NCBI GenBank assembly: GCA_036386675.1 | Contig: DASVVE010000016.1 | Span: forward strand, 122,561-186,560 | Length of the DNA stretch: 64,000 bases | DNA from: Chloroflexia bacterium | Lineage (GTDB): Bacteria > Chloroflexota > Chloroflexia > QHBQ01 > JADMIH01 | Direction: 5' to 3' | Shown: positions 23,019 through 49,075 of the stretch, in pieces | Numbering within the stretch: position 1 is the first letter of the stretch | Layout: every line of letters starts with the position of its first letter | Notes under the pieces: generated by a model | The model's input: the letters and a program-made list of their open reading frames with translations, nothing else | Databases searched by the model: none | What the model was told of the DNA's origin: nothing | Made by a program: the position numbers and the translations under genes

Positions 23019-23020
23019 AC

Positions 23021-24912: not shown

Positions 24913-25036
24913 GTTGCCCTTTCTGAGGGAGAATTGCGAAACTATAACATAGCGAACGTGGGAGCAACAAGCCAGTTCCTGAGCCAGGGAAGGTAGGAGC
25001 CAATGCGGTGACACACCAATTGTGACGCTAATATCC

Positions 25037-27979
25037 CTAACTCGGACCCAGAGTGGGTATAGTTGCGGGAAGAGTCTTGATTAGCTCAACAATGGCTTCC
25101 TGGGCCTGCCCTGAAAGCAGTTGTTGACCTACGGTGATTAACACGATAGCCAGCGGAGACAGATAGCCTAAGATGAAGCGTGCATCTCGTAGCGGGTAGA
25201 AATCAAAAATGTGTCGCCAGTAGTAGCCCTTCTCCCGGACGGTTGTAACGTCCATGAGCACTCCCAGTGCTACCAAAAATACCACTAATTCTAAAGTGCG
25301 GAAGAACCAACTGGTGCTCAGTGCTTGCCCGGTCCATGCATGGATTAAGGCATCGAAGCCCAAGGATAACCCATAAACACCTGCCAGGGCCACACCCTTA
25401 AGTGCACCATTGTTCCACGGCAGGTAAGTCGGCAAGTACGCATACAGACACCCCATGATGAATGCGGCAACTAGCCAGAAAGCTATCTCGTCGAGCACCC
25501 CCCTGGCAATCTGGAACACTGCCATAGTGGATGATGAGAATGCTTCTACTCCGCCCTGAGTGAGAAGTACATAGATGTAAAAGACAATAGGGAACAGGGC
25601 AAGCTTCCAACCGATAGTTACTGCTAGTTGTCCATTCTCCCACCAAGTGTTCCTAGGCCCCAATGCTAAACCGAGCCTATGTGGTGACAAACGCGACGGT
25701 GCCATGTGCGGTAAACGCAGCCATCTCGTCCTTCTGGTCGTGCCCCGTCGCAATGCCTCAATTTCCTGTTCTATAGCTTGATACTCCCGGCTGCTCTCAC
25801 CTGCATCCTTCTTGCCTTCCGAGAATTCCTTGTATTGAGTCGCCTCCTTGTTTTCCAGCCCTCTAATTGCTTTTGCCCGTTCGAGAAATTCGCTAACGAG
25901 GGCGGCACGTCTCGCGAACAGGTCTTCCTGCGTCAAACCAGGATTATGCGCAAGAATGCTGGAAATAACCCTTTCGACAGCCCTGAAGCGCCTCGTAAAA
26001 AGCTTGTTCATCAAGAAGAGAGCTGCGATGAAAGCAAGTGGGACCCCAAAGCCAAATAGTTGGCCGTCGGTGCCCACCACGAACGTGGCAAATAGGAGTG
26101 CCATTGAAGCCAAAGCCCAGCGGTCAGCGCTAAAAAGTAGGACGTTTGGAGACTGCGAAGCCTGGATATACAGCACGCGTAACAAGCCGAACAATGCTAT
26201 GTATGGTAAGAAGGCTATTAATTGAGCAAAAAGACTGAAGGGGTAACTTCCAAGTGAGGCAATTACCGACTCGAACCACTCTGAAGATCCAAAAGTGGAG
26301 GTATTGAATACAGTTTCCGGTGCGCTCCAGATCTTACTTCTTCTATATTCAAGTCTCACCCACTGTGCGAACGTGAGGAGCGCAAGCAAGGCAGGAATGG
26401 CGTTGAGCCACCACTGGTACCTGGCTCCGCGCGCCGGGTCGATCTTGATTACCTTCGCTGCGACTGGGTGCGGAGCGAGTGCGATGGCAAAGCGCACCAG
26501 TCCAGCCAACACGAAATACACCAGGCACAAGAATACCAGGCCGACGAGTAGCAACCACCACGGCTGATCGAACCATTCCCACAACTTATTGTCATTCGGT
26601 GCAGAGCTTGACATAAAATAGGCTATGGAACTGAACGCCGAGGGTAGGTTCAGCACTGTTAAGCTCGCCAAAGTAGTAAGTCCAATCAACAAGCGGTAGA
26701 CAAGTGGTAGCTTTCGGTTAATTTTCCGCCAGAATAGGACAGAGGCTAATGAGAAGAAAAAAGCAGAGGTAAGCAACAAAATTGAGTTCTTGAAGCCGAG
26801 GAGGAGGACCGAATTTCTGACTGTCTCATCGTAAAACCCGGAACCAGGAGCGCTGCTAGAGATGATAAGCGGATAAGCGAATATCCATAATCCATAATAT
26901 AGGAGTCCTTCCGCCGGTAGCAGCATTAGGACCAAAAGCATCCAACGTAGTGATTTTCTTGCAGGTGTCACTACATCTCTTGTGTTCTTTTTCTTCTCGG
27001 CTCCCTTTGCCGCCAGGATTCTAAACGTAGAAAAGAGAATGACGGTAGGTATAGCATAGCTTACGAGTAGGTGCAGAAAGGACCACATCGATTGATCAAC
27101 AAGAGAGCGTAGCACTGTCAGGGACAAATCAGAGGTAAGATGGCCCCGCACAGTCACATCCTGGTCAATGGCATTTTCTGACAGGTTCCAACTCACACTA
27201 CCTTGTTCGTTCAATATTGATGGTGACGGGCTTGCAGAGATGACTCTCATCCCTATCAGTTGCATGTCAATGATCCAGGTTGTCGGCGTCAGCCACTCGG
27301 CGGTTGTGAGTGCATCCCTGCCGCTTATCTCGAAAAATACCTCTGATTCAGAGGAGCTAATGTACCATGGCATTATTGTGCGAGGGTAGGAATAGAGCGC
27401 ATTAGTATTGGTGATAGTCACAGTAGCGACGTTCTGGTCTACTGATATGACAGGCGGCGCAATGCGGCTGAAGCTCTCGTGCCAGGACCCAGGCAATATG
27501 TCTTTCAAAGCCGCAAGGTAGTTCTCATCGTTCCGAGTGTGCCGTAGTAAGGTAGCTACTTCGGGACGGCTCGCGGGGAGGCTGATTGAAAAAGTACTGG
27601 TGACGATAGGGTAGGTAGCGGTGGTTGCGTCAACATCGAGTCGTGTTGTCACAGTTATTGGAGCGGGTGGGGAAGGCGGCGTAGCTACCGTATCGCTCGC
27701 ACCCTCGGGAAGTATAGTGATAGTGAGGGGTGACTGTAGAGTAAGAGTTAATACGGCAGAGACGGCTTCCGCCGGCAGGAGAGATGTTCCTGGCATGCGT
27801 CCAACACCGGGCTCACTATGTAGAGCAGCATTACCAAGCTTTACGTAACTTGACTGCGAAGCCAAATAAGCTGTTGCTCTGGCGGATGTGGTAGTTACAG
27901 TTGAGGCAGCCAAACCAAGGAGTAACAACAATCCGCCGAGTAGCCATATGCTGCGTGGTTGAATTGAGAAGTGTGACAT
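25037..27979 (-). CDS. Large polytopic membrane protein (~980 aa) with a ~330-aa N-terminal extracytoplasmic domain, unknown function
   Basis: Start MSHFSIQPRSIWLLGG... at 27979, preceded by GGAGG. Signal/anchor, then ~18 hydrophobic segments. Visibly lower GC than the flanks. Confidence 0.6.
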   Translation of the reverse strand: MSHFSIQPRSIWLLGGLLLLLGLAASTVTTTSARATAYLASQSSYVKLGNAALHSEPGVGRMPGTSLLPAEAVSAVLTLTLQSPLTITILPEGASDTVATPPSPPAPITVTTRLDVDATTATYPIVTSTFSISLPASRPEVATLLRHTRNDENYLAALKDILPGSWHESFSRIAPPVISVDQNVATVTITNTNALYSYPRTIMPWYISSSESEVFFEISGRDALTTAEWLTPTTWIIDMQLIGMRVISASPSPSILNEQGSVSWNLSENAIDQDVTVRGHLTSDLSLTVLRSLVDQSMWSFLHLLVSYAIPTVILFSTFRILAAKGAEKKKNTRDVVTPARKSLRWMLLVLMLLPAEGLLYYGLWIFAYPLIISSSAPGSGFYDETVRNSVLLLGFKNSILLLTSAFFFSLASVLFWRKINRKLPLVYRLLIGLTTLASLTVLNLPSAFSSIAYFMSSSAPNDNKLWEWFDQPWWLLLVGLVFLCLVYFVLAGLVRFAIALAPHPVAAKVIKIDPARGARYQWWLNAIPALLALLTFAQWVRLEYRRSKIWSAPETVFNTSTFGSSEWFESVIASLGSYPFSLFAQLIAFLPYIALFGLLRVLYIQASQSPNVLLFSADRWALASMALLFATFVVGTDGQLFGFGVPLAFIAALFLMNKLFTRRFRAVERVISSILAHNPGLTQEDLFARRAALVSEFLERAKAIRGLENKEATQYKEFSEGKKDAGESSREYQAIEQEIEALRRGTTRRTRWLRLPHMAPSRLSPHRLGLALGPRNTWWENGQLAVTIGWKLALFPIVFYIYVLLTQGGVEAFSSSTMAVFQIARGVLDEIAFWLVAAFIMGCLYAYLPTYLPWNNGALKGVALAGVYGLSLGFDALIHAWTGQALSTSWFFRTLELVVFLVALGVLMDVTTVREKGYYWRHIFDFYPLRDARFILGYLSPLAIVLITVGQQLLSGQAQEAIVELIKTLPATIPTLGPS

Positions 27980-28180
27980 AACTCGACTACCTCCACTATG
28001 GGAAAGTTCGCTACCATCAGGTGCCCGACATCCCTGCATGTGTCTCACAACGTCCTATATTGTACACAGAACTCATCAAATTTCCATGCAGGGTGAGAGG
28101 TATCCGTAGATGCTGCTAAGGACACGTATCGTGGCGGCATGTGTCCTTAGCAGCATCGCACATGTCGGATGTAATTAAGG

Positions 28181-28343
28181 ATGCAACTACAGGTCAAAAC
28201 TTGCCCATGTTTGCAGTGAAACTTTGCAACTGCCTGTGGAGAAAGTCTGCAACTACCCTCAATTTAGCAAACAAAGTATGCAACTGGCCTCGTACTCCTG
28301 TGCTGCGACGTCGGCCACAGAGTCGCAAATCTCTGCAACTAGC
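28181..28343. promoter_or_regulatory. Array of five direct repeats TGCAACT(A/G)(C/G)C in the upstream region of the large membrane-protein gene
   Basis: Copies at 28181, 28224, 28247, 28278 and 28333. A further copy plus its inverted partner at 28381/28431 form a hairpin. Confidence 0.35.
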
Positions 28344-28380
28344 CTAACCCTCTCTCCTCACAAACTGGTGTAGCTAAACA

Positions 28381-28441
28381 TTGCAACCAGCCTACAGGAC
28401 TCTGAGTTGTTTCTCAAGTCAGAGTCCTGTAGGCTGGTTGC
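28381..28441. terminator. 24-bp perfect inverted repeat hairpin downstream of the lipoprotein gene
   Basis: tgcaaccagcctacaggactctga-gttgtttctcaag-tcagagtcctgtaggctggttgca. Confidence 0.45.
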
Positions 28442-28526
28442 ACTGGGTGTCCGTCCCGAATTGTGGAGCAAAGCTAGACCGATACCACGTGGGGAGCGAG
28501 TAGGCTGTTACGTGCTAGAGATCCAA

Positions 28527-29651
28527 TTATTTATCTGCGCAACTCGCAGTTCCCCAGGATTCGAGTGATAGACTGGTTGGCGGGAACGACTCGTATGCAG
28601 CAACCCTCGTCCAAGCAAAGCCTGAGATATGATACCTTAGACCTTTACCCTGACCTGTCGCTCTGTCCCAGAGGGGTACAGGGACTATGAAACCACTCGT
28701 CTGTAAGAAGTCAAGGGTGCTCCTGGTCTCCGGACTTGTGCCGATGTTCTCGATTGTCTGTAGCCAGTCTCCTACAGATGCCCTATGGTCGTTGGCATCC
28801 TCTGAGTTGGCGTAATTTACGTTCTCGCCGGGCGTTGGTAAGGCAGAAGCTCTACCCGGACTGCCTGTGCCGGAACTGAATGCTAACCATCTGAAGCCCC
28901 GGGCACCCGCAGTATCTAGACTCACCTTGTTCTTGTCGTGGCGACTTTTCGATCCTTTGAAGCTGTCGGCGTGAACTGCCAGAGGATACACCTTACAGGG
29001 GGTGTTGGTCTCCCACTGTCTTGTTTGTAGGTTGTAAGCAATCATAGAGGTGGAACCGTCTTTCTGGGGAGCGATCAGAATAACGCGAGGCAAGTCTATG
29101 TATGCGATGTCCAGGGCGCCTTGCTTCTGTGGCGAGGTATACAGGATAACGTCACTTAGGTCCCGGCCTTCGAGTGTGGTCGTAAAAACCTGAACCGCAC
29201 CCTGTAGCGGATCATCACTTAGCACTCCGGCGTTCAGATACGCATATTCGTTACCCAACTTACCTCCCCAACAGGAAGTCACATGAAAAGTCCTGCTACC
29301 CCCTCCGCACGTTCCCAAACCGGGTTCAGGCGTGTCTTGCGGCTCAGGAGTGGCCGGAGGAGGTAGTGTCGGCATGGGTGCCTTGTTCTCAGCGACCCTG
29401 GTCTTCGCTGCGTCTCGCTTCGCTTGATCCATATCCAGGAAGGCTTGTTTTGTAGCCTCTACTTCCGCACGCGTCGGCGTATGAGTCTGGGAGGCGGCGA
29501 CTGTCTGATTCGGCACGCTGAGGGCATTGCCGGAGTCGTTCTGCGTGTCGTCGTTGTTACCGTTACATCCTGCGATGAGCAACAGGCTCACTAGTAGAGC
29601 AGGTCCCAGTACCCTTATGGCTGTGGTCCGTCTCTTGGTACTCACTTTCAC
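28527..29651 (-). CDS. Lipoprotein (lipobox LIAGC), unknown function
   Basis: N-terminus MKVSTKRRTTAIRVLGPALLVSLLLIAGCNG with a Pro/Thr-rich linker. 374 aa. Confidence 0.65.
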   Translation of the reverse strand: MKVSTKRRTTAIRVLGPALLVSLLLIAGCNGNNDDTQNDSGNALSVPNQTVAASQTHTPTRAEVEATKQAFLDMDQAKRDAAKTRVAENKAPMPTLPPPATPEPQDTPEPGLGTCGGGSRTFHVTSCWGGKLGNEYAYLNAGVLSDDPLQGAVQVFTTTLEGRDLSDVILYTSPQKQGALDIAYIDLPRVILIAPQKDGSTSMIAYNLQTRQWETNTPCKVYPLAVHADSFKGSKSRHDKNKVSLDTAGARGFRWLAFSSGTGSPGRASALPTPGENVNYANSEDANDHRASVGDWLQTIENIGTSPETRSTLDFLQTSGFIVPVPLWDRATGQGKGLRYHISGFAWTRVAAYESFPPTSLSLESWGTASCADK

Positions 29652-29740
29652 TTTGTTCCTCCTGACCCTGGCTTGCTACAAAAGTATGCCCAACCGTACA
29701 CAGTTGATCGCTGGAGTGGTACAAACCTGAGCATACAGGC

Positions 29741-32700
29741 TTATGGATAAATAATGTCGGTTACTCCATATTGCAAAATTGACTGAGGTTCAAGTAAAGG
29801 GTTAGGCACCTTCTGGGGTGCAGTAGGAGATCCAGTTAGGGGAGCATGAGGCGAGCTAAGCATATCTGTCAATGCTTGCCATGCTCGATGAGGTGGTAAG
29901 TAGGGACAGCCAGCACCTCCTGCCGCGCCGCTAGTGCAGGAGTAGGGTTGCCAATTACCCGTGCAGTCGGCCCCGTCCTGGGTCGTACATTTGTCATTAA
30001 ACCGCTCGTTGAAGCGTGCCGGTGTACTTGTCATACGTGCGGCACATGTGCTGTTTACGGCACAGCCTGACATGGCTCCTAAGAAACGCATATTGCTGCC
30101 CTGGTGAACCTTGGCATACCATTTGACGTTGTACCATTCCCACATGTAGGGTGTGAGGTATATTTGTGGCAGCGGCCAGGCATTAACCAAACCATATGAC
30201 ACATAGTACACACGATTCAGTGCCTCGCTTACTAGAGGACTTTGCGCCCATGTTGTCGGGCTCCCGCCTCGGGGGCAGCCCTCACAACTACCAAAGTTGA
30301 ACGCCGCCACATCTGGAATTGAGGTAAAGCCTTCTGCCCAGTACTTGGTCCCAGACTTCGCCGAGTCGTTGATCCTGTATCTACTCCATCGATCTGGATC
30401 GGCTGTCACGTTGTCAGCATTCACATTGGGGCAGGGACCTCGTTCACCTAGCACGGTATCCCTACAGTCCAGGTCAGTGGATGCATAGTACTCAAAGTCA
30501 TAACCACCTGCAAAGCTGACAGCACCACTCAAATATGGGTCTGACGCAGCTTCCTGACGCAGAGCACTTACCATTCCGGCCCACGCCGCTCCATGGCTGT
30601 AATTCAGATCCATATTATCCTGCCAGATATGTGGGCCATCAGCCAGGTACGCGGTATTGCTAACGCCTAGAACGATCGTCAGGTCAGCCACCGTGTTAGG
30701 AGCCTGGCAGCCCTGTCCAAGCGTATAGCCTAGGGCGAACTCTCGCGCTATAGCCTGGACTTCAGCCAACGAAACTAACGTACGAACAACTATGAGTCGT
30801 GCTCCATATTCGACACCTGGTGGGGAACTTACGCTTTGGATATATGGCCCTCCAAAATCCAGCACTACCAGACCTGTCTCGCCTCTTTGCCGCGCTTCAC
30901 ACCCCAAGAGCCGTGCATCGGCAGGATCGGCACTCTGTATGTAATAACTTGTGGTATGTTTTGGAGGTGTCGGTAAGGCAAAGCCCTGGGCTGAAGATAC
31001 CGCCCACTGACCTGTACCTGACTGTGCAGTAGCTACAATTTGATACATCCGGTATGCTGAATCTCCCGGCAGCGTAACTGTGTTCCATCCGCCTGTCAGC
31101 GTAACGGCAGATGTAATCGTTTGGGCGTCAGACATACCGCAGATACCCCATTGGTCGCAACTAACCTGATTTCCAGCTCTAATGTCAATTGTAGTAGCGT
31201 AGTTGCCTTCCTGGTATAGCCTGATAGTACCAACATTCGTAGGTGTTGTCAGGTCAACACGCCAGTTGTCACTTCGTGCCCCCCATATTGTAGCTTCGTT
31301 GCCATCCGTGGCGTTACCGGCCATGTATGCACAGCCACCGAAACATTCGGCACCATCCCAGGCGCGCTTGCCCAGGAACACGTCATCGGGAGGTGGAGGA
31401 GGCGGAGGAGTACCCATGATCCCTTGTATGGTGTGTACTCTCCAGCCGTCCTGTATCCCAATATGTGCTGTTGCTACAATGCTATACATACGGTACGCTG
31501 CATCTCCGGGCAGAGCAATCTCGTTCCACCCATTTACCACAGCCACATTGGCCTTTATTGTTCGCGGATCGCTCGTATCACAAATGCCCCAGCCGTCGCA
31601 CCCTACGACAGTGCCTGCGACTATGTCAACAGCCGTAGCATAGTTTCCGTCCTGGAAGAACGTTATCTTTACGATCGGCACTTGCTGCCCAACATCTACA
31701 CGCCAACTGTTGCTTCTGGCTCCCCAGTACGTGGTGCTGTTGTTGTCTACGGCATTTCCTGCCATGTTGGCACAGCCGCCAAAGCACTCGTTTCCGTCCC
31801 ACGCCGGCTTGCCTAGGAAGACGTCCTCCCCGGCCGCCGGGGTGGCCGGAGTGCTGGAAGGAGTAGCCGTGTTTGTTGATGTGGGTGTCGAGGTAGGTGT
31901 CGAAGTGGATGTAGATGTTGCTGTGAATGTTGGCGTGGGAGTAGCTCCAGGAACACCGTTACAGATGTAGGCATCCTGCACCTTGCTGCCCGTGTTATAG
32001 AGCGAACTGTCCATGTATAGAGGAGCGGACGGCGCGGTTACGGTGCTCGTGTACACAGCTACACCGTTGCGGTAGTAGCGCACTAGCCCCGAGCTACCCA
32101 CTCCAATAGCCAGCTCGTCACCTACGTCGTACAAGCTCACCGCTCCTTTAGTGGTACCGCTCTCTGCAACCGTCAAGCCACTGGTGCCCGGGTCTATATA
32201 GAAGGCGTAGTCCAGGTTCTGCCAGGTAACGTTGTTGGAGGGGTCATCGGAGAGGCCAAACATCAATATGTCCTGCGTCGAGGCCACCGTGGCGCGCACG
32301 TATCCTGTGCTGCCGGGCTGCAGGGCCGCACTAGATATGGCACCCGCGTTCCAGCCCGTACCTCCCGCCGTCTTCGCCAGGGTATTGCCTGTGGGGGTGG
32401 CATTCTGCCCGCCGGTCCACGTTACCGGCTGGCAGTTGCTCGTAGATATAGGTTCAGTGAGGCTGGCACCGCAAAGAGATGCATCCTGCACCTTGCTGCC
32501 CGAAGTGTAAAGGGAGCTATCTAGGAACAGTGGGTACTTGGGCGCTACCGTGCTGGTGTAGAGTAGCTCACCGTTCTTGTAGTAGCGGACGATCTGTGTA
32601 TCGTCCACGGCCACTCGCAACGTGTCCCCGGCATCGTACAGCCCATATCCTCCCCTGTTGGTCCCCTTCTCCACGATCTGTAATTTGCCCGCGTACGGGT

Positions 32701-34150
32701 CTATGTAGAAAGCATAATCGATGCTCTGCCACTGCACGTCAATATCGGAATTGGACAGGCCAAACATGAGGATGTCGCCGGACGAAGCCACTGTCATCTG
32801 AACATAGCCACGCCCTGACAGGATGCCCTTCCTGGAGGCACCTCCTGCGTTCCAGGCGCTGCCCCCGCTTACCTTTGTGATCGTATTCCCTGCGGCCGAG
32901 ACGTTGCGCTTACCCGTCCACGCCCCGTCCAGGCTGTCGCATGGCGACTGAGGCAAAGCCGGGTGCGCGCTCGCCCCACAAATCTGAGCATTCTGTACCT
33001 TACCACCCACATTCCAGATGGAGCTATCCATATAAAGGGGGTAAGTGGGTGCCGCTGTGCTGGTGTAGACGAGCTGGTTATTGAGATAGTATCGCACTAC
33101 CCCCGCTTGGTCTACCGCGATAGTTAGTTCATCTCCCGCATCATACATGCTCCACAAGGCTTTGGTGTTGCCCTTCTCCTGGACTGATAGCACGCCTACG
33201 CCCGGGTCTATATAGAAGGCGTAGTCCAGACTGGTCCAGTTTACGTCGCTGTCCTGGTGGGAGAGGCCAAACATGAGGGTATCGATGCCTGAAGCTATGG
33301 TGGCTCGCACGTACCCGCTGTTGCCGGACTGTATAGCCTGGCTGGAAGCAGCCCCGGCGTTCCAGCCGCTGCCCCCGGCCGTCTTCTGAACAGTGTTGCC
33401 GGTGGACATAGCGTTGCGGGTGTGGACCCACGTCACCGCCTCACAGGTGGAGGTAGGCAGCGGCGCGGGCGCACTGCCCCCGCAAATCTGCGCGTTCTGC
33501 ACCTTGCCGCCCGAGTTCCAGATGGAGCTATCCATGTACAAAGGAAAGGTCGGGGCTACCAGGCTGGTGTAAAGGAGGTTGCCATTGCGATAGTAGCGTA
33601 CTGAAGTACCCTCTACAGCTACTCGCAGTACATCTCCGGCCGCGTATGCGCCGTAGCTGGCGAGGCCAGCTCCACGCTCTATTATCGTGAGACCCCCCGA
33701 GACTGCCGGGTCTATGTAGAACGCGTAGTCAAGAGACTGCCAATGTGCATCTTTATCAATGCGAGACAGCCCGAACATGAGCGTATGGCTGGTTGAAGCC
33801 ACCGTCGCTTCAACATGCCCGCTGCTTCCCGATTGGATGCCTACACTGGAAGCGGCACCTGCATTCCAGGCGCTACCGCCCGCTGTTTTCTCAATCGTGT
33901 TGCCGGTAGCAACCACGTTCCGCTTGTGGACCCATGTTACTGCCTGGCAGTCTTCCGGTCCGCTCATGAGGGCTGCCGCCGACGCAACGTCAACACCTGG
34001 GAAGGGGGTGAGGGTGACCGACTGTAGTGAGAGGGATGAAAGGGTGAGAAACAGGATCACCATGAAGACGATGCGAAGATACCAATGGGAAGAGCGTGGG
34101 CGGAACATGATGTGGGGGCATCCCTTCGCGTGTGAACGCATGTAGAACAC
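29741..34150 (-). CDS. Giant secreted multidomain protein (1469 aa): 5x LamG/ConA-like repeats, 2x discoidin (F5/8 type C)-like domains, and a ~500-aa Cys-containing C-terminal domain
   Basis: Five ~150-aa repeats with TGNTxxKTAGGxxWNAGAxS...MFGLS...DYAFYIDP...GDxLxVAV...RYYxNGxLxYTS. PT/S-rich and poly-Pro linkers. AWDGxECFGGCAxMAGNAxDxNxxTxWGARS discoidin-like modules. The start is uncertain among three Met codons (34150, 34141, 34108). Confidence 0.7.
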   Translation of the reverse strand: MFYMRSHAKGCPHIMFRPRSSHWYLRIVFMVILFLTLSSLSLQSVTLTPFPGVDVASAAALMSGPEDCQAVTWVHKRNVVATGNTIEKTAGGSAWNAGAASSVGIQSGSSGHVEATVASTSHTLMFGLSRIDKDAHWQSLDYAFYIDPAVSGGLTIIERGAGLASYGAYAAGDVLRVAVEGTSVRYYRNGNLLYTSLVAPTFPLYMDSSIWNSGGKVQNAQICGGSAPAPLPTSTCEAVTWVHTRNAMSTGNTVQKTAGGSGWNAGAASSQAIQSGNSGYVRATIASGIDTLMFGLSHQDSDVNWTSLDYAFYIDPGVGVLSVQEKGNTKALWSMYDAGDELTIAVDQAGVVRYYLNNQLVYTSTAAPTYPLYMDSSIWNVGGKVQNAQICGASAHPALPQSPCDSLDGAWTGKRNVSAAGNTITKVSGGSAWNAGGASRKGILSGRGYVQMTVASSGDILMFGLSNSDIDVQWQSIDYAFYIDPYAGKLQIVEKGTNRGGYGLYDAGDTLRVAVDDTQIVRYYKNGELLYTSTVAPKYPLFLDSSLYTSGSKVQDASLCGASLTEPISTSNCQPVTWTGGQNATPTGNTLAKTAGGTGWNAGAISSAALQPGSTGYVRATVASTQDILMFGLSDDPSNNVTWQNLDYAFYIDPGTSGLTVAESGTTKGAVSLYDVGDELAIGVGSSGLVRYYRNGVAVYTSTVTAPSAPLYMDSSLYNTGSKVQDAYICNGVPGATPTPTFTATSTSTSTPTSTPTSTNTATPSSTPATPAAGEDVFLGKPAWDGNECFGGCANMAGNAVDNNSTTYWGARSNSWRVDVGQQVPIVKITFFQDGNYATAVDIVAGTVVGCDGWGICDTSDPRTIKANVAVVNGWNEIALPGDAAYRMYSIVATAHIGIQDGWRVHTIQGIMGTPPPPPPPDDVFLGKRAWDGAECFGGCAYMAGNATDGNEATIWGARSDNWRVDLTTPTNVGTIRLYQEGNYATTIDIRAGNQVSCDQWGICGMSDAQTITSAVTLTGGWNTVTLPGDSAYRMYQIVATAQSGTGQWAVSSAQGFALPTPPKHTTSYYIQSADPADARLLGCEARQRGETGLVVLDFGGPYIQSVSSPPGVEYGARLIVVRTLVSLAEVQAIAREFALGYTLGQGCQAPNTVADLTIVLGVSNTAYLADGPHIWQDNMDLNYSHGAAWAGMVSALRQEAASDPYLSGAVSFAGGYDFEYYASTDLDCRDTVLGERGPCPNVNADNVTADPDRWSRYRINDSAKSGTKYWAEGFTSIPDVAAFNFGSCEGCPRGGSPTTWAQSPLVSEALNRVYYVSYGLVNAWPLPQIYLTPYMWEWYNVKWYAKVHQGSNMRFLGAMSGCAVNSTCAARMTSTPARFNERFNDKCTTQDGADCTGNWQPYSCTSGAAGGAGCPYLPPHRAWQALTDMLSSPHAPLTGSPTAPQKVPNPLLEPQSILQYGVTDIIYP

Positions 34151-34865
34151 CTGTCTATAGAGGATACTGCCTCAAGACCAGGTGCTCGCCTTTATTAGGT
34201 TGTAACAGCTTGCAGTAGGAATAGAGTTCCTACCGGAGTCCAACAGAACAGCAAACGTAGGGCGTGACAACGACGATAAATCTCCTGACTATAGAGGTCA
34301 AGAGACTGAACGGCCTTGGTAAACACGTAAGGTCGCTGCACACGCTACACGGCGATACAGAGCGCGCCCGTGTGCAATCAACGCGAAGTGACGGTTTGCG
34401 GTTTTTGGTGAGCTTAGTTTACGAAAGTCGACCTTTACAAACAAGCTAATTGACTACGTAGTTTAGCGTAACTATGGTCTTAAGCACGTGGCGATGGAAA
34501 TGGAGAGCGACCAATTACGGAATGTAGTGAGAAATGGCGGATTGGCAGACATAGTAACATGAATTACAAGCCACAACCCCACTCCCTGGTAGGTCAGCCC
34601 ACTCTATCGGAGATAGGGTGCGCGCAACGTTATTGGTGTTAATCATGATTGCTAAGATACGGGCGTCACACCTAAATCCTCCATCCATATGTGTTGCACT
34701 TGACTGGTTACCAACCTGTGACTACACACATCATGACGCGGCTGCATGTTAGGCCCGACACAAAGAACATGTAGCGGTGAAGATCAGCATTGTTGTAATG
34801 GACCACCCGCCACGGGTATAGATGGAAAAGAAAGGACATATGCGATATGACTAAAGTCGATACTA

Positions 34866-35766
34866 AGAGCGCCTTTCAAAACCTGGCCCGTGACTTGCGG
34901 TGGTAGTGGGCACTATGAGCAAGCCACTAGTACCAGACGAACTATGGGAGATTGTAGAGCCACTGTTGCCAGCTGAGCCACCTAAGCCAAAGGGAGGTCG
35001 TCCTCGCGGGCCGGGCCGAGCAGCCCTTGCAGGGCTCATCTTCGTGCTGCGAAGGGGCCTACCCTGGGAGATGCTACCCCAAGAGATGGGCTGTGGGAGT
35101 GGAGTAACCTGCTGGCGCAGATTGCGTGAGTGGCAGAAGAAGGGAGTGTGGCGCAAGCTGCACAGGGCGTTGCTCAACCGCCTGGGAGAAGCAGACAAGA
35201 TAGATTGGTCACGCGCCAGCCTGGACTCAGATACTGTTCCAGCTAAGGGTGTAAAAAGGGGGACCCGAAAGCTACGGCTGTTGGGCCGAACCCCACAGAT
35301 AAGGGCAACACCCAGAGGGTGCCCGGCACGAAGCGCCATGTTGTGGTCGAGCGGCAAGGCATACCGCTGGCCGTGAAACTCACCGGTGCCAACACCCACG
35401 ACTCGAAGGTGTTCGAGGAGATGGTGGACAGCATAGAACCTATCAAACGTCCACTCGGCAAGCCTGGCCGACCTCGCAAGCGCCCGGACAAGTTGCACGC
35501 TGACAAGGCGTATGACATATCCAGGTGCCGCAAGGCTCTTGCGAAGAGGGGCATCAAGTGTCGCATAGCGCGTAAAGGAGTAGAGAGCAGCCAGAAGCTG
35601 GACAGGCACAGGTGGGTGGTTGAGCGCACCCTCTCCTGGCTCGACCGTAAACGTCGGCTCACCATCCGCTACGAGCGTCGTGACGATATTCACCTGGCGT
35701 TCCTGCATCTTGGTTGTGTCCTCATCTGCCTCAATCACCTGTTATGATGGTTTTGAAGGGCGCTCT
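34866..35766 (+). mobile_element. IS5-family (IS427-group-like) insertion sequence, ~900 bp, with 18-bp imperfect terminal IRs
   Basis: IRL agagcgcctttcaaaacc (34866-34883) matches IRR ggttttgaagggcgctct (35749-35766) with one mismatch. Encloses orfA/orfB. Confidence 0.85.
34900..35747 (+). CDS. IS5/IS427-type transposase orfAB, produced by a -1 programmed frameshift at A AAA AGG (35253-35259)
   Basis: orfA 34900-35376 (frame 1) and orfB 35319-35747 (frame 3). The -1 fusion reads ...GVKKGDPKATAVGPNPTDKGNTQRVPGTKRHVVVERQGIPLAVKLTGANTHDS, the typical IS5 DDE transposase context. Confidence 0.8.
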
Positions 35767-35892
35767 AAGCACATCGCACTTGGCCAGTTGCAGACTTTTG
35801 CTTCACCTCAGTTGCAAGGCTTGTCACACTATAGTTGCAAACTTTATGGGATCCGACAGTGCAGTAGGAGATCCTCGCCTATCGTCCATTGT

Positions 35893-37039: not shown

Positions 37040-37780
37040 TTATGCGCTGGCGAGGTCCGAGGGTTTGCCACCGGAGACCACGCGGAGGTGGGAGGGCGGT
37101 TCTTCTGGGTTATTAGCAGCGTCTTCCAGGGGCACTTCTATGACGCCCTGGTCCGGGCGTGGTACCTCGTGGCAATGGCGGCAGCGCGCTTCGTAGTTTT
37201 CTTTGGCCCCGACCATGATTATTGGGTCGTCGTAGTTGGCTGGTCGTCCGTCGATGAGGCGCTGGGTGCGGCTGGCGGGTGCCCCACACGCCACGCAAAT
37301 CGCCTGCAGCTTGTCCACCATCTCGGCCTCGGCCATGAGCAGGGGCATAGGGCCGAACGGCTCTCCCCTGAAGTCGAGGTCAAGCCCCGCCGCGATTACC
37401 CTCACGCCGTTGTGGGTCAGCCGCTTGCACAGGTCAACCACACCCTCATCGAAGAACTGCGCCTCGTCAATGGCGACCACGGTGGTGTCAGGCTCTACCA
37501 GGCCCTCTAGCTCGGTGGAGCCACCTACGGGGACGGCTGTGTGCAGCACGCCGTTATGCGAGGCGACCTGCACGGCTGAATAGCGCGTGTCGATGCGAGG
37601 CTTGAAGACCTGCACCTTCTGCCGGGCAATCTGCGCCCTTTTGACTCGGCGGATCAACTCCTCCGTCTTACCGGAGAACATACTGCCGCAGACCACTTCC
37701 AGCCACCCGCCCGCGTAATGCTTGGGGTGTGGGCCGAGCGGCCCCTGGTCCTGCATGTAGCGTTGCACGTAATCTCCCAT
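37040..37780 (-). CDS. tdk: Thymidine kinase
   Basis: [15 protein letters not shown]-loop and a C-terminal Zn ribbon (CVACG...CRHCH). Start MGDYV, preceded by aaggtggg. Confidence 0.9.
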
Positions 37781-37891
37781 CTTCCCACCTTTCAACCGGG
37801 ATAACCGCAATCATACGGTGGAAAAGGTGGCACGCTCTCTGTTTGCGCATCGATGCGAGGTATTGTTTTGCACAAGCTGAGCCAGGTTAGG

Positions 37892-38013
37892 AAGGACGAT
37901 AGAGGAGTGGTTAGTGGTTAGTGGTTAGTGGTTAGTTATTATCCGACCATCCTAATCTTTGCGCGTCCTTTGCGCTCTTTGCCTCTTTGCGTTTTCGTCT
38001 CCTACCATCGTCC
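37892..38013. repeat. Modular tandem-repeat element (copy E5), inverted orientation of the E1 family
   Basis: The reverse complement contains gacgatgg...acgaaaacgcaaagaggcaaagagcgcaaaggacgcgcaaag (near-identical to the E1 segment) followed by (actaacc)x4. Confidence 0.8.
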
Positions 38014-38072
38014 ATTAAAGCAAAAGAGACCAGAGCGCGAGGCCCGGTCTCTTCTCTGCTAACCCAATCGAG

Positions 38073-38408
38073 TTAGGCTTCGGTCGCGACCTCTTCAGTC
38101 TCGGTGGCCTCAGCCTGTGGGGCGGGGCGGCGCTCCTGGGGAGGAGGCGGCACGTTGGCCCTGTTGCCGGAGCCGCGGCGGGCGACCCGGACCTCATTGC
38201 TGGTCACGGTGCGGTTGCCCATGCGGCGCATGAAGCGCTCTACCTGGCCCGCCGTGTCAACGATGCGCTGCTCGCCGGTATAGAATGGGTGACAATTGCT
38301 GCAAAGGTCCGTCTTGAGGACTTCCTTGGTAGACATCGTCTGCCAGGTGTTGCCGCAAGCGCAGTGAACCGTTGCAAGTACGTACTTGGGGTGGATTCCT
38401 GCCTTCAT
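38073..38408 (-). CDS. rpmE: 50S ribosomal protein L31 with a ~40-aa Pro/Glu-rich C-terminal extension
   Basis: MKAGIHPKY...CxC...CSNCHPFYTG core, then ...NVPPPPQERRPAPQAEATETEEVATEA. Confidence 0.9.
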   Translation of the reverse strand: MKAGIHPKYVLATVHCACGNTWQTMSTKEVLKTDLCSNCHPFYTGEQRIVDTAGQVERFMRRMGNRTVTSNEVRVARRGSGNRANVPPPPQERRPAPQAEATETEEVATEA

Positions 38409-38428
38409 TGTTGTTTTACCTCGCTTGT

Positions 38429-38529
38429 TTAATTACGAATTACTAATTACGAATTACCAATTGTTTGTTACGAACCACGAATTACCACTTCCGAAATACC
38501 TGAGTAATTCGTAATTAGTAATTCGTAAC
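38429..38529. repeat. Palindromic element of TAATTACGAAT tandem repeats between rpmA and rpmE
   Basis: aattacgaattactaattacgaattaccaatt ... gagtaattcgtaattagtaattcgtaa. Confidence 0.75.
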
Positions 38530-38533
38530 TCGG

Positions 38534-38830
38534 CTACGCAGTAGCCGTAGCGGTCTCGGCAACCTGTCCGTTGGCGCGCTCGGCGTACACGCTGACCCGC
38601 TTCCTGTCCTTGGTGGCGTTCTCAAACTTGACGTAGCCATCCACGAGCGAGAAGAGGGTGTGGTCGCGGCCGAGGCCCACGTTGTTGCCGGGGTGGATCT
38701 TGGTGCCGCGCTGGCGCACGATGATGCTGCCGGAGCGGACGGCCTGTCCATCGCCGCACTTCACGCCGAGCATCTTCGGGTTGCTGTCTCGACCGTTGCG
38801 GGACGAACCTACACCTTTTTTATGAGCCAT
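38534..38830 (-). CDS. rpmA: 50S ribosomal protein L27
   Basis: [19 protein letters not shown]...[19 protein letters not shown]. Confidence 0.95.
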
Positions 38831-38847
38831 TGCTTTCTCCCTTCGGG

Positions 38848-38934
38848 AGAGTGGATAGTGGATAGTGGATAGTGGTTAGAAGCTCTTTGCTAACCACTAT
38901 CCACTATCCACTATCCACTATCCACTATCCACTC
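38848..38934. repeat. Palindromic element of GTGGATA tandem repeats between rplU and rpmA
   Basis: gagagtggatagtggatagtggatagtggttag-aagctctttg-ctaaccactatccactatccactatccactatccactcc. Confidence 0.75.
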
Positions 38935-38937
38935 CAG

Positions 38938-39252
38938 TTACAGAGCGATTTCCTTGATCGAGAGCCTGGTGAGGCCCTGGCGGTGACCCGTCTTGCGGCG
39001 GATGCGCTTCTTCGGCTTGTACTTGAACACAACGAGCTTGGGGCCTTTGGCCTGCCCGATGACGGTGGCGATCACACGAGCGCCCGCGACTGTGGGTGTG
39101 CCAACTTGCACGCCGTTGTCGCCCCCGCCCACCATGAGCACCTCGCCCAGCTCTACCTGGCTGCCCTTCTCGGCATCAAGCAGTTCTACCTCTATCGTAT
39201 CACCGGGAGCTACCCTGAACTGGTGGCCTCCGGCCTTTATGATTGCGTACAC
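38938..39252 (-). CDS. rplU: 50S ribosomal protein L21
   Basis: MYAIIKAGGHQFRVAPGDTIEVE...KYKPKKRIRRKTGHRQ. Confidence 0.95.
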   Translation of the reverse strand: MYAIIKAGGHQFRVAPGDTIEVELLDAEKGSQVELGEVLMVGGGDNGVQVGTPTVAGARVIATVIGQAKGPKLVVFKYKPKKRIRRKTGHRQGLTRLSIKEIAL

Positions 39253-39488
39253 CTAATTTCCTCCGCTACTATTTGGGTCACAGCCTCTAATTATATCCGC
39301 GTTTGGGCGTGCTGTCAAGCGTGAAACTCGAGGCGAGAGCGCAGCTTAGGGGTCGCGGATTCTCTGCATGTGCAGTACGTACGGTATGCAGCCGGAAGCA
39401 GCGGAAGCGCAAGTAGTACAAATACGAGGAGGACTTGCACCGGCTCATGCTCTGCATGTTCAGGAAGCTGGCTGAAGGGGCAAGACAG

Positions 39489-47017: not shown

Positions 47018-49075
47018 TTACCAATCGCGAGCGTCGTTGCGGTACTTCCACTCATGTGGAAACGGTCCTGACCGGGAAGGGGCAACCGGACCTGCTGGGG
47101 CCGCTGAGGTCTGGAATAATGGTTGGGTTACAGGTCCAGGTATCACCGGGGAGATAGAAGAACCTGTAGTGAGGCTAACGGGTAACGTAGCAGTAGGGCT
47201 GGGGACCAGTACGGGAGTGAAGGTAGGGGGCGGAGTAGGGGGTAGAGTCGGGGGTAAAGTAGGAGGTAGCGTAGCAGTAGGGCTGAGAACCAGCACAGGA
47301 GTGAAGGTAGGAGGCACAATAGGAACTGGAGTATCAGTGTAAGTAGCAGTAGCAACGGGAACCGAAGTAGGATCAAGGTCTGGAGTTGGAGCAATAATGT
47401 AAGTAGTTGCGGTGGCGGTGGAGCCAAGAACCAGGGTAGCACTAGGCTTGGGAATCGACGTAGGATCAAGGTCTGGAGGTGGGCCCGTGGTGGAGGTAGA
47501 CGTGGGAGTATTCTGGGGCGTGTCCGCGTCGGTGAGTGTATCGGGAAAGACCAGCCAGTGGTCGGCGTGGAACCATCTGGCCGAGGGATTTTCAGCGGGG
47601 TTTAGCTCGGCGCTACCCGACGAGGCGTACAGCACGTATATCCGCCGCACCGCCAGGTTCGGGTAGATCATCAGCCCTCCCTCGAAGTAAGCTACCAGAC
47701 CGCCGGTCTCCGTGCCTGGGGTATTCGTCTGTACGTCCGCGGGTGCGGTAGCCCAGCCTAGGCTTTCGCGCAGGTTCTGTTCGATCCAGACTTTGAGGAA
47801 AGTGCCGGTGGGTGGATAGAGGCCAGGCGGCACGTCCTTGGGCGACTCGGGTATATTGGTGGGGTCTACGTCGTTGAATGTCAGGACGCGCCCGTTATCG
47901 AACAACACATAGATGTCCTCGCGATCAGACATCCCGAATGTGTGAATACCTGCTTCATCGACGGTACCGCCCGCAGCACGTGCCGTTACGCTCACCATCT
48001 CACCACGCTGGTAGATCTGGCGCGTCACGGTGGCAGCCTTCTCCCGCTCGCGCATACACTTCAGGCGGACCCTTACGAACTCGTGATCCTGATATATGGG
48101 AGAGAATTTTCGCCCTGGGGTGCCGGACTGGCATGGCTTTAGAAGCACTTCGGGCTTGCCCGCGCCCTTGTAACGCCAATCGAGATAGTGCAGGCCCACG
48201 TTGCCCATCTGCACCTTGAAACCCTCTGGGGCGTCGGGTACGTAGGTGAGCACCCGCCGCTCGTATGCCTGCACCATGACGGGCGTCTGCTTACCCTCTA
48301 TCATCACCTTGGTCCAGTAGGCTTCACTTACCGGATAGCCCGTTACGTAGAAGTACGGCACGCTGAGTTGCGCGGTCGTCTTCTGGTCGTTCTCCATAAC
48401 GGGTCCCTGGGCGTTGAGGAAGTCAAAGAACACAGTGGGGATGTTGTGTTTGGTGGCAGGCTCGTAGTACGCATATGTAACACCAAACTCCCTGGCACGC
48501 TGTACATAAAACTGGGCTCTCGCGGAGTCGGGGTAGCCGTCGTCGGCAAGCCTTTGGACGACTTGCTTGCCTACGGCCTGCTGCGCGTCCTGCTCTATCA
48601 CGTAACCCAGGCTTGCGTACTTAACCGTTCCTGAGGCACCTGGCGAGTCGCCCGCCACCGGGATTTCGGCTGGGTAGCGAAAAGTGAACTTGCTGTTCCC
48701 GGTCTGCATGTTGCCGCTAACAAGCTCCCTGGTGAGCAGGCCGTTGGTGACGTAGAAGGGGCTGTTCTTGTCACCCGCGGGGTTGTTGATCTCCATGCGG
48801 CTCTTATCGAAATACTGCACGAGATGCTTACCCTGCGGCCCCTCTGCATAGTCCTCAAGTACCTGCCCTGTGTTAGGTTGCGGACCCCAGTACCAGCTTC
48901 GCTTTACTGCCCCATTCGCGACAAACGAATCGGTGCGGGTCCACACTCGCTCGAAGGCGGGGTCCGCGAACCTGCCTTCCTGATTAGCATGCACGGCCGA
49001 GCTACCGGGCGTGACACTAAGCAGGGGCAGTACAAGCAACAAGCTGATACAGACGAGAAGCTGTCGAGTCTTCAT
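47018..49075 (-). CDS. Secreted protein of unknown function (paralog 2) with a ~180-aa Pro/Thr-rich C-terminal extension
   Basis: Roughly two-thirds identical to paralog 1 over ~500 aa by eye, then ...PTLPPTLPPTPPPTFTPVLV... low-complexity repeats. Confidence 0.6.
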   Translation of the reverse strand: MKTRQLLVCISLLLVLPLLSVTPGSSAVHANQEGRFADPAFERVWTRTDSFVANGAVKRSWYWGPQPNTGQVLEDYAEGPQGKHLVQYFDKSRMEINNPAGDKNSPFYVTNGLLTRELVSGNMQTGNSKFTFRYPAEIPVAGDSPGASGTVKYASLGYVIEQDAQQAVGKQVVQRLADDGYPDSARAQFYVQRAREFGVTYAYYEPATKHNIPTVFFDFLNAQGPVMENDQKTTAQLSVPYFYVTGYPVSEAYWTKVMIEGKQTPVMVQAYERRVLTYVPDAPEGFKVQMGNVGLHYLDWRYKGAGKPEVLLKPCQSGTPGRKFSPIYQDHEFVRVRLKCMREREKAATVTRQIYQRGEMVSVTARAAGGTVDEAGIHTFGMSDREDIYVLFDNGRVLTFNDVDPTNIPESPKDVPPGLYPPTGTFLKVWIEQNLRESLGWATAPADVQTNTPGTETGGLVAYFEGGLMIYPNLAVRRIYVLYASSGSAELNPAENPSARWFHADHWLVFPDTLTDADTPQNTPTSTSTTGPPPDLDPTSIPKPSATLVLGSTATATTYIIAPTPDLDPTSVPVATATYTDTPVPIVPPTFTPVLVLSPTATLPPTLPPTLPPTPPPTFTPVLVPSPTATLPVSLTTGSSISPVIPGPVTQPLFQTSAAPAGPVAPSRSGPFPHEWKYRNDARDW

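Follow-up and report, generated by a model that had tools for sequence, protein, structure and literature searches.

Heptamer repeats are the most over-represented of the long simple repeats in many bacteria, and to our knowledge their origin and function have remained unexplained for more than 30 years. The classical STRR1-3 units are reportedly CCCCAGT, TTGGTCA and CAACAGT. Enterobacterial REPs are a different kind of extragenic palindrome: they are imperfect, ~35 nt long, follow a consensus that holds across the species and are associated with a RAYT transposase. They include the RAYT-mobilised REPINs. Within operons, REP/BIME elements (the malE-malF case of Higgins and Newbury) are said to form a barrier to 3'-exonucleases and to produce differential stability.

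Cyanobacterial STRR are tandem 7-nt units dispersed through intergenic regions, with hairpins between co-transcribed genes (PMC2670836; PMC4692102), among them the 7-bp-repeat hairpins found between hupS and hupL (PMC2670836). In Xanthomonas, GGGAATC heptamers occur as 70-75 convergent inverted pairs that are able to form stem-loops and are transcribed. These pairs lie near one flanking ORF (average 28 nt) and mostly between genes of the same direction, and their orthologous positions are kept between species while their length and sequence vary (Rehm et al. 2015, PMC4692102). In marine Beggiatoaceae, TAACTGA direct repeats are found within ribosomal-protein operons, always operon-internal, and have been interpreted either as tolerated or as influencing translation (MacGregor 2015, PMC4679880). 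In Chloroflexus aurantiacus, (GATAGRA)n satellites have been described (Subirana & Messeguer 2019, PMC6749651).

Here we describe two heptamer hairpins that separate the ribosomal-protein genes rplU, rpmA and rpmE in a 64-kb stretch of DNA (the window) from an uncultured Chloroflexota lineage. In both of them a 7-nt unit is repeated head to tail at least three times, the window has a dispersed and mainly intergenic excess of period-7 repeats, and the hairpin-forming inverted pairs lie between apparently co-transcribed genes, as in hupS-hupL and Xanthomonas. The hairpins are members of an already known, poorly understood class of heptamer repeats, in this case from an uncultured Chloroflexota clade; their nearest known counterparts are the hupS-hupL hairpins of cyanobacteria and the inverted pairs of Xanthomonas. 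They are not STRR in the strict cyanobacterial sense: the host belongs to the Chloroflexota, the units are GTGGATA, AATTACG, GGACGAT and others, nearly every locus has its own unit (though GGACGAT dominates), and the arrays are mostly palindromes that fill the spacer from stop codon to Shine-Dalgarno sequence. With the Xanthomonas repeats they share an intergenic position, mostly between same-direction genes and close to one flanking ORF, but those repeats consist of a single G-rich unit with G-quadruplex potential, whereas the units in the window are diverse and have no G-tracts. Heptamer repeats inside ribosomal-protein operons are common to the window and the Beggiatoaceae; in the latter a single unit is directly repeated immediately ahead of start codons, often in place of any recognisable Shine-Dalgarno sequence, whereas the window has inverted pairs after stop codons, with the Shine-Dalgarno sequence intact. 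REP/BIME elements are likewise extragenic palindromes inside operons and are transcribed within the mRNA. In contrast to them, the hairpins described here have a tandem-repeat substructure and lack a common consensus, whether between the two of them or with their orthologues, and no RAYT was present among the proteins scanned. The C. aurantiacus satellites come from the same phylum and are likewise heptamer-derived arrays, with a GATAG core that is related to GACGATA and GTGGATA. They form one heptamer family and are described as satellites, and, as far as the accessible part of that report extends, are presented without palindromes, operon context or orthologue comparison.

Results

Distinct heptamer palindromes separate rplU, rpmA and rpmE

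The original prediction held that a different tandem-repeat palindrome lies at each of the two junctions of the operon. This was confirmed by the Pfam identities of the genes, by TRF, by the complementarity of the arms and by folding (Table 1).

Table 1. Features of the rplU-rpmA-rpmE region, in window positions.
Feature	Position	Strand	Details
rplU (ribosomal protein L21)	38938-39252	minus	Pfam PF00829, E 9e-38
rpmA (ribosomal protein L27)	38534-38830	minus	Pfam PF01016, E 2e-38
rpmE (ribosomal protein L31)	38073-38408	minus	Pfam PF01197, E 5e-30
Operon promoter TTGACA-17-TATAAT	39290-39318	minus	12/12 consensus match; 37 nt upstream of rplU start codon
Hairpin 1, between rplU and rpmA	38846-38934	minus	(GTGGATA)~4.9, 10-nt loop, (TATCCAC)~6.3
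Small hairpin UCUCCC-GAA-GGGAGA, directly 3' of hairpin 1	38836-38850	minus	folded
Hairpin 2, between rpmA and rpmE	38431-38530	minus	AATTACG/AATTACT heptamer arms
Spacer with rpmE Shine-Dalgarno (GAGGU), outside hairpin 2	38409-38429	minus	read from sequence
Canonical intrinsic terminator after rpmE (AGAGACCGG...CUGGUCUCUUUUGCUUU)	38016-38055	minus	RNAfold
Composite repeat element, rpmE-tdk spacer	37895-38015	minus	1 of 4 copies in window

Hairpin 1 has its arms at 38846-38879 and 38890-38934; around the 10-nt loop, 34-nt arms pair with 97% complementarity. The unequal arm lengths (period 7 by TRF, with 4.9 and 6.3 copies) allow three possible pairing registers, the alternatives having loops of 17 and 24 nt. 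A variant unit next to the loop, GTGGTTA, occurs in mirrored form in the two arms. We calculated stem-loop free energies, a check that had been proposed along with the prediction. As RNA, hairpin 1 had an MFE of -61.9 kcal/mol (z -9.6), and equally good folds were obtained in 0 of 200 shuffles; folded as DNA, it had an MFE of -36.6 kcal/mol (z -10.3). Hairpin 2 has arms of 25-28 bp that are 100% complementary and enclose 46 nt holding degenerate copies of the same unit. That unit had been read as an 11-mer, which proved incorrect: TRF gave a period of 7, with a 14-nt super-unit AATTACG/AATTACT in 4.6 and 4.1 copies. The RNA MFE of hairpin 2 was -37.1 kcal/mol (z -6.0), and the hairpin is orthologous and alignable in two related contigs, L082 and L083.

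Both hairpins start 3-5 nt after the upstream stop codon. They stop 15-21 nt short of the following start codon, so that the stem does not include the Shine-Dalgarno sequence. The expectation that they adjoin both codons was therefore correct for the stop codon but not for the start codon, from which the Shine-Dalgarno sequence separates them. At the rplU-rpmA junction, the 3' half of the small UCUCCC-GAA-GGGAGA hairpin is the rpmA Shine-Dalgarno sequence, and this small hairpin was found in 8 of 11 orthologous spacers. Rfam covariance models gave 0 matches at the gathering score across the whole window; in E-value mode, generic miRNA-precursor hairpin models alone appeared, on both strands and far below the gathering score. 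An assembly artefact was ruled out because the same arrangement is present in independent assemblies of relatives, with identical hairpins in L175 (ENA) and L176 (Logan) and in L171 (NCBI) and L173 (JGI).

The hairpins lie inside a predicted transcription unit

The 12/12 promoter before rplU recurs unchanged in all 10 relatives examined, together with a conserved 5'UTR. A consensus scan found no promoter-like match in the rplU-rpmA or rpmA-rpmE intergenic region, the other match in the operon being a weak one (9/12) ahead of rpmE, within the rpmA coding region. The GC stem and T-run that follow rpmE are also present in L085, L086, L087, L171, L173, L174 and L175; this terminator aligns with that of L085 and is conserved wherever the spacer downstream of rpmE was folded in a relative. 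It was identified by folding and conservation, and was missed by the simple consensus scan because its stem is bulged. Neither strand has a U-tract or T-run after hairpin 1 or hairpin 2, and the consensus scan (which also missed the bulged terminator) found no terminator-like site on the minus strand. Because they have no U-tracts, the hairpins are predicted to be transcribed through, as internal parts of a single tricistronic mRNA that would run from the promoter at 39318-39290 to the terminator at ~38055-38016. The palindromes are located within a unit that looks co-transcribed, in agreement with the proposal that such elements are tolerated in a highly expressed operon.

Heptamer arrays fill stop-to-Shine-Dalgarno spacers across the window

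Exact runs in the window numbered 12 for period 7, as against 0-1 for periods 6 and 8-11. Heptamer arrays occupy ~10 of the ~34 intergenic regions of at least 30 nt and are found in 0 of the 4 divergent spacers. Most of them form inverted pairs that take up the stretch from the stop codon of one gene to the Shine-Dalgarno site of the following one. The arrays adjoin or overlap the upstream stop codon, and in the six cases internal to operons the stem stops 0-9 nt short of the Shine-Dalgarno sequence. Similar hairpins were observed between ABC-transporter ATPase genes, between sugar-modification genes, after isocitrate lyase and elsewhere, the flanking genes being unrelated housekeeping genes. 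Since hairpins of like kind are located at these other, unrelated junctions, their association with ribosomal proteins is incidental.

The nearest relatives of the window are Chloroflexia/Chloroflexota MAGs, and the clade sample amounted to ~150 kb, of which ~86 kb came from relatives. A scan of genome contigs with L21 found no close genome (best 63% identity) and served as outgroup and background. As a further period-7 background we used the loci of at most 79% identity among the matches listed in a metagenome-contig search with the highly conserved L27. The density of period-7 arrays per 10 kb was 2.3 in the window and 2.9 in the relatives, compared with 0.29-0.41 in the other loci among the matches listed, that is, arrays were 6-10 times denser in the window and its close relatives. 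The same heptamers recur at non-orthologous loci and across genomes, with 8 arrays of the GGACGAT class, 4 of GACGATA, and AGTACCG at three loci in three genomes. We considered that stop codons embedded in the units might serve as frame-independent stops, which fits GATAGAC, GTAACAC and ACTAATT but fails for GGACGAT and AGTACCG.

The window also contains four copies of a composite element, one of them directly beyond the rpmE terminator. It consists of outer GGACGAT/ATCGTCC arms, ACGCAAAG-type 8-9-mers, a core and then an (ACTAACC)n array. This element is missing from the orthologous rpmE-tdk spacer of L085, and its core was not found in the ~86 kb of relatives searched.

The rplU-rpmA hairpin persists while its repeat unit changes

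Comparison with orthologous operons, likewise suggested at the outset, showed that the rplU-rpmA hairpin is kept in 12 of 12 related contigs, which represent seven deep lineages (L21 74-100% identical) and are not independent samples. The heptamer unit differs almost every time among these contigs and changes even between contigs with 94-97% identical rplU DNA. The rpmA-rpmE hairpin and others were gained and lost among the relatives. In outgroup Chloroflexota the rplU-rpmA spacer is mostly 11-40 nt and has no hairpin, which bears out the premise that these two genes normally follow each other without a large gap. The orthologous units form a series of single substitutions (AGTGGTC, AGTGGAT, AGTGGTT, AGTTGTT, AGTTGTG, AGTTATG, AGTTTTG, AATTTTG), so that change in place fits better than replacement. 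The AATTACG/AATTACT unit makes up hairpin 2 in the window, whereas in L087 it is hairpin 1 that consists of it.

Most orthologous rplU-rpmA hairpins had z-scores between -5 and -15, and they vary from perfect palindromes in L083 and L086 to decayed ones in L084 and L168 (z -1 to -2). In the window and in L086, the order of variant units along one arm returns as a mirror image along the other. The finding of three different hairpins beside the same L21 protein might have been taken as proof of very fast change in place. That argument is weakened by L082 and L083, whose rplU DNA is 100% identical while their rpmA is only 91% identical, which suggests either recombination or a chimeric assembly with its join at the hairpin. 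Of 9 orthologous stems, 4 were more stable when folded as the sense strand and 5 as the antisense strand, and G·U pairs totalled 13 in the sense folds versus 19 in the antisense folds. Neither stability nor G·U pairing was thus biased toward the sense strand as a sign of selection on RNA, although a set of 9 stems is not decisive.

Discussion

We consider it reasonably likely that both hairpins are local representatives of a larger population of heptanucleotide tandem-repeat palindromes, of the STRR/long-SSR type, which extends across the genome and the clade and has colonised the stop-to-Shine-Dalgarno spacers of this Chloroflexota lineage. They are probably not dedicated ribosomal-protein regulators or terminators. 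The palindromy looks DNA-made because there is no G·U bias toward the sense strand, and we also counted the mirrored variant units, the unequal copy numbers of the arms and the spread from perfect to decayed hairpins toward an origin at the DNA level. Palindromes of this kind would arise and be remodelled as DNA: slippage in 7-nt steps would alter copy number, inverted duplication or arm-to-arm template switching would mirror one arm in the other, and copying would spread a small heptamer vocabulary between loci. They may be tolerated because each hairpin would fold on itself, leaving the downstream ribosome-binding site free and bringing the upstream stop codon near. An RNA-stabilising role is possible. 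By analogy with enterobacterial REPs, the hairpins would most likely act in the RNA as a barrier to 3'-to-5' exonucleases, as an RNase III site (30-38 bp of near-perfect duplex), or both, and the effect would be modest and generic rather than a control specific to ribosomal proteins.

The retention of the rplU-rpmA hairpin in 12 of 12 contigs is nevertheless higher than would be expected of a purely neutral passenger. Long perfect palindromes are usually unstable in bacteria, and their abundance here therefore suggests either a benefit or active regeneration. The stem-loop at this junction, possibly together with the small hairpin that would sequester the adjacent Shine-Dalgarno sequence, might be selected for structure only, setting the output of L21 relative to L27 through RNase III processing, segmental mRNA stability or termination-reinitiation coupling while the heptamer is free to drift. 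This is possible, although on balance we think it unlikely. It would account for a hairpin that persists through seven deep lineages with strongly negative z-scores while its sequence is replaced, for a stem that ends just ahead of the conserved small hairpin in most orthologues, and for the much lower persistence of hairpins at rpmA-rpmE and other junctions. For the cyanobacterial hupS-hupL STRR hairpins, too, a role in transcript stability or translational coupling has been proposed (PMC2670836). Against such selection, stability and G·U pairs have no sense-strand bias, the hairpins of L084 and L168 have decayed but have been neither lost nor repaired, a like architecture recurs at many unrelated junctions, outgroups function with their short spacers, and the lineages that share the hairpin are non-independent.

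A more speculative proposal, which we regard as doubtful, combines persistence with rewriting. The rplU-rpmA hairpin would be a functional structure-only RNA or DNA element kept throughout the history of the clade, and its sequence would be rewritten continuously by a heptamer-palindrome-writing process, either dedicated or intrinsic, that targets stop-proximal spacers and uses a shared vocabulary. That process would consist of 7-nt slippage and arm-to-arm conversion and might be protein-mediated, as by RAYT for REPs. If this were true, the Chloroflexota would have a self-renewing class of intercistronic elements.

The hairpins could instead be small mobile elements akin to MITEs or REPINs, which a transposase directed to stop-proximal sites would have inserted, with the differences among orthologues reflecting repeated independent insertions. 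Recurrence of the same heptamer families at non-orthologous loci and in different genomes is consistent with this, as are the switch of AATTACG/AATTACT between junctions in L087, the composite element with its conserved core, present in four window copies and missing from the L085 site, and other elements in the window with long terminal inverted repeats. We judge it quite improbable for the hairpins themselves: they are simple, with no conserved internal sequence or evident target-site duplication, neither the 35 window proteins scanned nor the relatives' gene tables include a transposase or RAYT-type protein, and the orthologous units form a one-substitution series. Least of all do we credit the suggestion that the hairpins are partial terminators or attenuators that lower expression stepwise from rplU to rpmA to rpmE, which is highly improbable because, for all that the stems are very stable and placed right after stop codons and that long hairpins can pause RNA polymerase, neither has the GC-rich stem with an immediate U-tract of a Rho-independent terminator, the consensus scan of the minus strand was negative, the clade uses canonical stem and T-run terminators such as that conserved behind rpmE, neither rpmA nor rpmE has a promoter of its own beyond the weak match within rpmA, and ribosomal proteins are needed in equimolar amounts.

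Colonisation of stop-to-Shine-Dalgarno spacers by a clade-wide heptamer population, the reading we prefer, has a practical side. Short-read assemblies break at heptamer arrays and may acquire chimeric joins from them, a point of importance for the reconstruction of MAGs in this group. For the biology of these repeats, the clade is a compact natural experiment: in one essential operon, one junction carries a hairpin in every sampled lineage while a second gains and loses it. The contrast between the two junctions makes it testable whether the stem-loop is selected or self-regenerating, and whether it acts on RNA or on DNA.

Two heptamer hairpins inside a probable single transcription unit

The 107-nt rplU-rpmA spacer contained (GTGGATA)~4.9 together with its reverse complement (TATCCAC)~6.3 (TRF), which can pair as 34-nt arms with 97% complementarity around a 10-nt loop (hairpin 1; two additional registers are possible). 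In the 125-nt rpmA-rpmE spacer, perfectly complementary arms of 25-28 bp flanked a 46-nt interior (hairpin 2). The original prediction had located both hairpins correctly and had read the second repeat unit as an 11-mer, which TRF showed to be the heptamer AATTACG/AATTACT. Computing the stem-loop free energies, a check it had proposed, gave strongly stable RNA folds in both cases, with minima of -61.9 kcal/mol (z -9.6) for hairpin 1 and -37.1 kcal/mol (z -6.0) for hairpin 2. None of 200 shuffles folded equally well for either hairpin, and DNA-parameter folding gave z scores of -10.3 and -5.8, respectively. The hairpins had also been described as abutting both stop and start codons. This held on the stop side, where 3-5 nt preceded the hairpin, but not on the start side, where 15-21 nt followed it and the Shine-Dalgarno (SD) sequence was left outside the stem.

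The consensus promoter upstream of rplU was identical in 10/10 relatives examined, in which the 5'UTR was conserved too. No promoter-like match was found by consensus scan in either intergenic region, and the sole other match was a weak one (9/12) within the rpmA coding region. No T-run followed hairpin 1 or hairpin 2. A terminator lay 3' of rpmE instead, with equivalents at the same position in seven related contigs (L085, L086, L087, L171, L173, L174, L175). The order therefore reads promoter, rplU, hairpin 1, rpmA, hairpin 2, rpmE, terminator, and expression of rpmA and rpmE would depend on read-through. Since, within the operon, the canonical-type GC stem and T-run occur only after rpmE, the partial-terminator role first suggested for the hairpins is poorly supported. 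The rplU 5'UTR (…GAGGCTGTGACCCAAATAGTAGCGGAGG…) showed strong clade-wide conservation, at the same position in L082-L087, L168, L171, L174 and L175; it matched no Rfam family and could be an uncharacterised L21-operon leader.

Features of the operon and repeats in the window
Feature	Position	Strand	Remarks
L21, L27, L31 genes	within 38073-39252	minus	Pfam E 9e-38, 2e-38, 5e-30
Operon promoter	39318-39290	minus	TTGACA-17-TATAAT; 12/12 sigma-70 consensus (consensus scan)
rplU 5'UTR	39253-39289		
Hairpin 1	38846-38934		
Hairpin 2	38431-38530		
Terminator	about 38055-38016	minus	3' of rpmE; GC stem + T-run
Thymidine kinase gene	37040-37810		downstream of rpmE
Array-bearing spacers	2830-2996, 3999-4201, 6895-6965, 21165-21251, 22440-23020, 37811-38072, 38409-38533, 38831-38937, 52234-52620, 59329-59443		
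Histidine-kinase ORF	59411-61294	minus	runs into array, 59411-59443
Composite repeats	2829-2978, 3989-4208, 22853-23025	plus	
Composite repeat	37895-38015	minus	3' of rpmE
MITE-like elements	5562-5755, 52416-52550		long terminal inverted repeats
Long palindrome	61453-61624		52-nt arms, 96% complementary; upstream of sortase gene
Long palindrome	56932-57100		33-nt arms of ACGCCAAG-type repeats flanking terminator-like hairpin
Long palindrome	28376-28448		31-bp hairpin inside low-GC region
Low-GC stretch	~25000-35800		49-54% GC vs about 60%
Tandem repeats	47181-47353		period 84 nt (2.1 copies, 76% match) + 12-nt G-rich repeat; inside 685-aa ORF without Pfam match

One junction persists and the other does not

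The source genome represents an uncultured Chloroflexota lineage, the best match among species-representative genomes being only 63% identical in L21. A large protein collection contained relatives with 74-92% identity, several of them under the label 'Chloroflexia bacterium', and their contigs were obtained via exact-protein look-up. Comparison of orthologous operons, also proposed at the outset, separated the two junctions. The rplU-rpmA hairpin was kept in every relative (12 contigs from seven deep lineages; spacers 63-112 nt), whereas the rpmA-rpmE hairpin was mostly missing: only L082 and L083 shared it with the window, a degenerate trace remained in L168, and the other relatives had either an unstructured spacer of 41-77 nt or one with different content. 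Outgroup Chloroflexota also have the rplU-rpmA-rpmE order, with rplU-rpmA spacers of mostly 11-40 nt containing the SD only. The density of period-7 arrays per 10 kb was 2.3 for the window and 2.9 for the relatives, versus 0.29-0.41 in other loci (about 800 kb).

The rplU-rpmA unit changed almost each time: AGTGGAT in the window, AGTGGTC in L082 and L174, AGTTGTT in L083, degenerate AGTTATG in L084 and L168, AGTTGTG and others in L085, AGTTTTG in L169 and L170, CTTAATn in L086, AATTACG/T in L087, AATTTTG/AATTCTA in L171-L173, and AATTTTG/AGTTCTG in L175 and L176. Many units were one substitution away from a neighbour, a series pointing to in-place descent and homogenisation. Different units were found even between contigs with 97% (L085 vs L169) or 94% (L087 vs L171) identity in rplU DNA. 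As a caveat, L082 and L083 had 100% identical rplU DNA but different hairpins and only 91% identical rpmA, and are mosaics joined at the hairpin, through recombination or assembly. Assembly artefact as the source of the hairpins was ruled out by identical hairpins in independent assemblies (L175 and L176; L171 and L173).

Several contigs among L001, L083, L169, L170 and L175 ended within heptamer arrays, L175 starting with (TCGTCCT)16.9. Heptamer repeats therefore break short-read assemblies, and the arrays may be places where sequences recombined or were joined as chimeras. Heptamer hairpins also lay at the rpmG-rplU junction of L171 (AGTGGTC, 9854-9925) and the tuf-rpmG junction of L087 (CGTAAAA, 4547-4639); several translation-gene spacers are therefore occupied in the clade.

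Placement of heptamer arrays across the window

The window had 12 exact period-7 runs, compared with 0-1 at periods 6 and 8-11. On a rough gene map, arrays occupied about 10 of ~34 intergenic regions of at least 30 nt and none of the four divergent spacers in the window. Every array-bearing spacer included a gene 3' end, arrays touched or overlapped the upstream stop codon, and at the six operon-internal hairpins 0-9 nt separated stem end from SD. Neighbouring genes were ordinary (GNAT/plsX; a UDP-GlcNAc 2-epimerase and DegT pair; two oligopeptide-type ABC ATPases; isocitrate lyase; a histidine kinase adjoining an MscS-like channel), and the hairpins have no ribosomal-gene specificity. One hairpin arm encoded the last ~11 codons of the histidine-kinase ORF, whose stop codon lay inside the loop. 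On either strand, the 5' arm tended to carry the unit in its G/T-rich form (GGACGAT, AGTGGAT, AGTGCCG, AGTTGTT) and the 3' arm in its C/A-rich form (by-eye count; window hairpins 21184, 38846, 52234 and 59346, and L082, L083, L085, L174 and L175), with 6895-6965 and L086 as exceptions. The trend matches the 'convergent' arrangement reported for Xanthomonas heptamers.

The four composite repeats ran (GGACGAT)n, GGAGACGRAAACGC, (ACGCMAAG)n 8-9-mers, the conserved core ~GAAGrGTGCTrACCnCTAC, a heptamer array that varied (TCAGTCC, CTCCTCA or ACTAACC) and (ATCGTCC)n. They had no Rfam match, and the copy 3' of rpmE was missing from the orthologous L085 spacer. Both MITE-like elements contained GTCATyCTGArCGCAGyGAAGrATCTC; the one at 5562-5755 had 47-nt arms with 98% complementarity and a fold of -120 kcal/mol. 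The low-GC stretch, which may be horizontally acquired, carried very large minus-strand ORFs of 1003 aa (DUF6185), 374 aa, 1469 aa (F5/8 type C-like domain) and 291 aa (no Pfam match).

Origin in DNA or in RNA

Among imperfect stems the transcribed strand was not favoured: folding was more stable in sense for 4 orthologues and in antisense for 5, with 13 G·U pairs in all sense folds together and 19 in all antisense folds, and preference among the remaining window hairpins went both ways. Orthologous hairpins varied between perfect and decayed (z -1 to -15). Variant units were mirrored in the same order in both arms (AATCCTT/AATGCTT/AATTCTT in L086; the loop-proximal GTGGTTA in the window), so the arms must have been copied from each other, not separately grown; the unequal copy numbers (4.9 vs 6.3) indicate that slippage continues after arm copying. 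Exact unit classes were shared by non-orthologous loci and different genomes (GGACGAT in 8 arrays, GACGATA in 4), and AGTACCG was seen at three unrelated junctions, spread over three genomes. Given about 1,170 unit classes that are possible, we estimate such recurrence to be far beyond coincidence, which implies either dispersal or a sequence-specific factor.

A structure selected for its own sake at the rplU-rpmA junction would fit the unbroken retention of that hairpin among relatives and the small SD-sequestering hairpin adjoining it in 8/11 orthologues; we consider this rather unlikely. In the best-supported reading, hairpins 1 and 2 are both local representatives of a family of heptamer-repeat palindromes that extends across the clade. 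They would be formed and remodelled at the DNA level, kept within the stop-to-SD spacer through purifying selection, and transcribed through within the tricistronic mRNA. By analogy with enterobacterial REP elements and with proposals for cyanobacterial STRR hairpins, they would likely act in RNA by blocking exonucleases, by offering a site to RNase III, or by folding back neutrally and so holding the stop codon near the next ribosome-binding site.

In many bacteria, no long simple repeats are more over-represented than heptamers, as papers citing Mrazek (2007) relate. Hairpins of 7-bp repeats lie between hupS and hupL in filamentous cyanobacteria (PMC2670836), and heptamer repeats occur within ribosomal-protein operons of Beggiatoaceae (PMC4679880). 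In Xanthomonas, 70-75 heptamer pairs in convergent, inverted arrangement are transcribed and lie near one flanking ORF (average 28 nt), with orthologous sites kept and sequence variable (PMC4692102). (GATAGRA)n satellites are described for Chloroflexus aurantiacus (PMC6749651). Rfam had no matching family at gathering score, and in E-value mode gave only generic miRNA-precursor hairpin models scoring far under that threshold. The hairpins therefore belong to an already known, unexplained kind of repeat, to which this clade adds unit diversity, strict stop-to-SD placement, and a persistent and a volatile junction within one operon.
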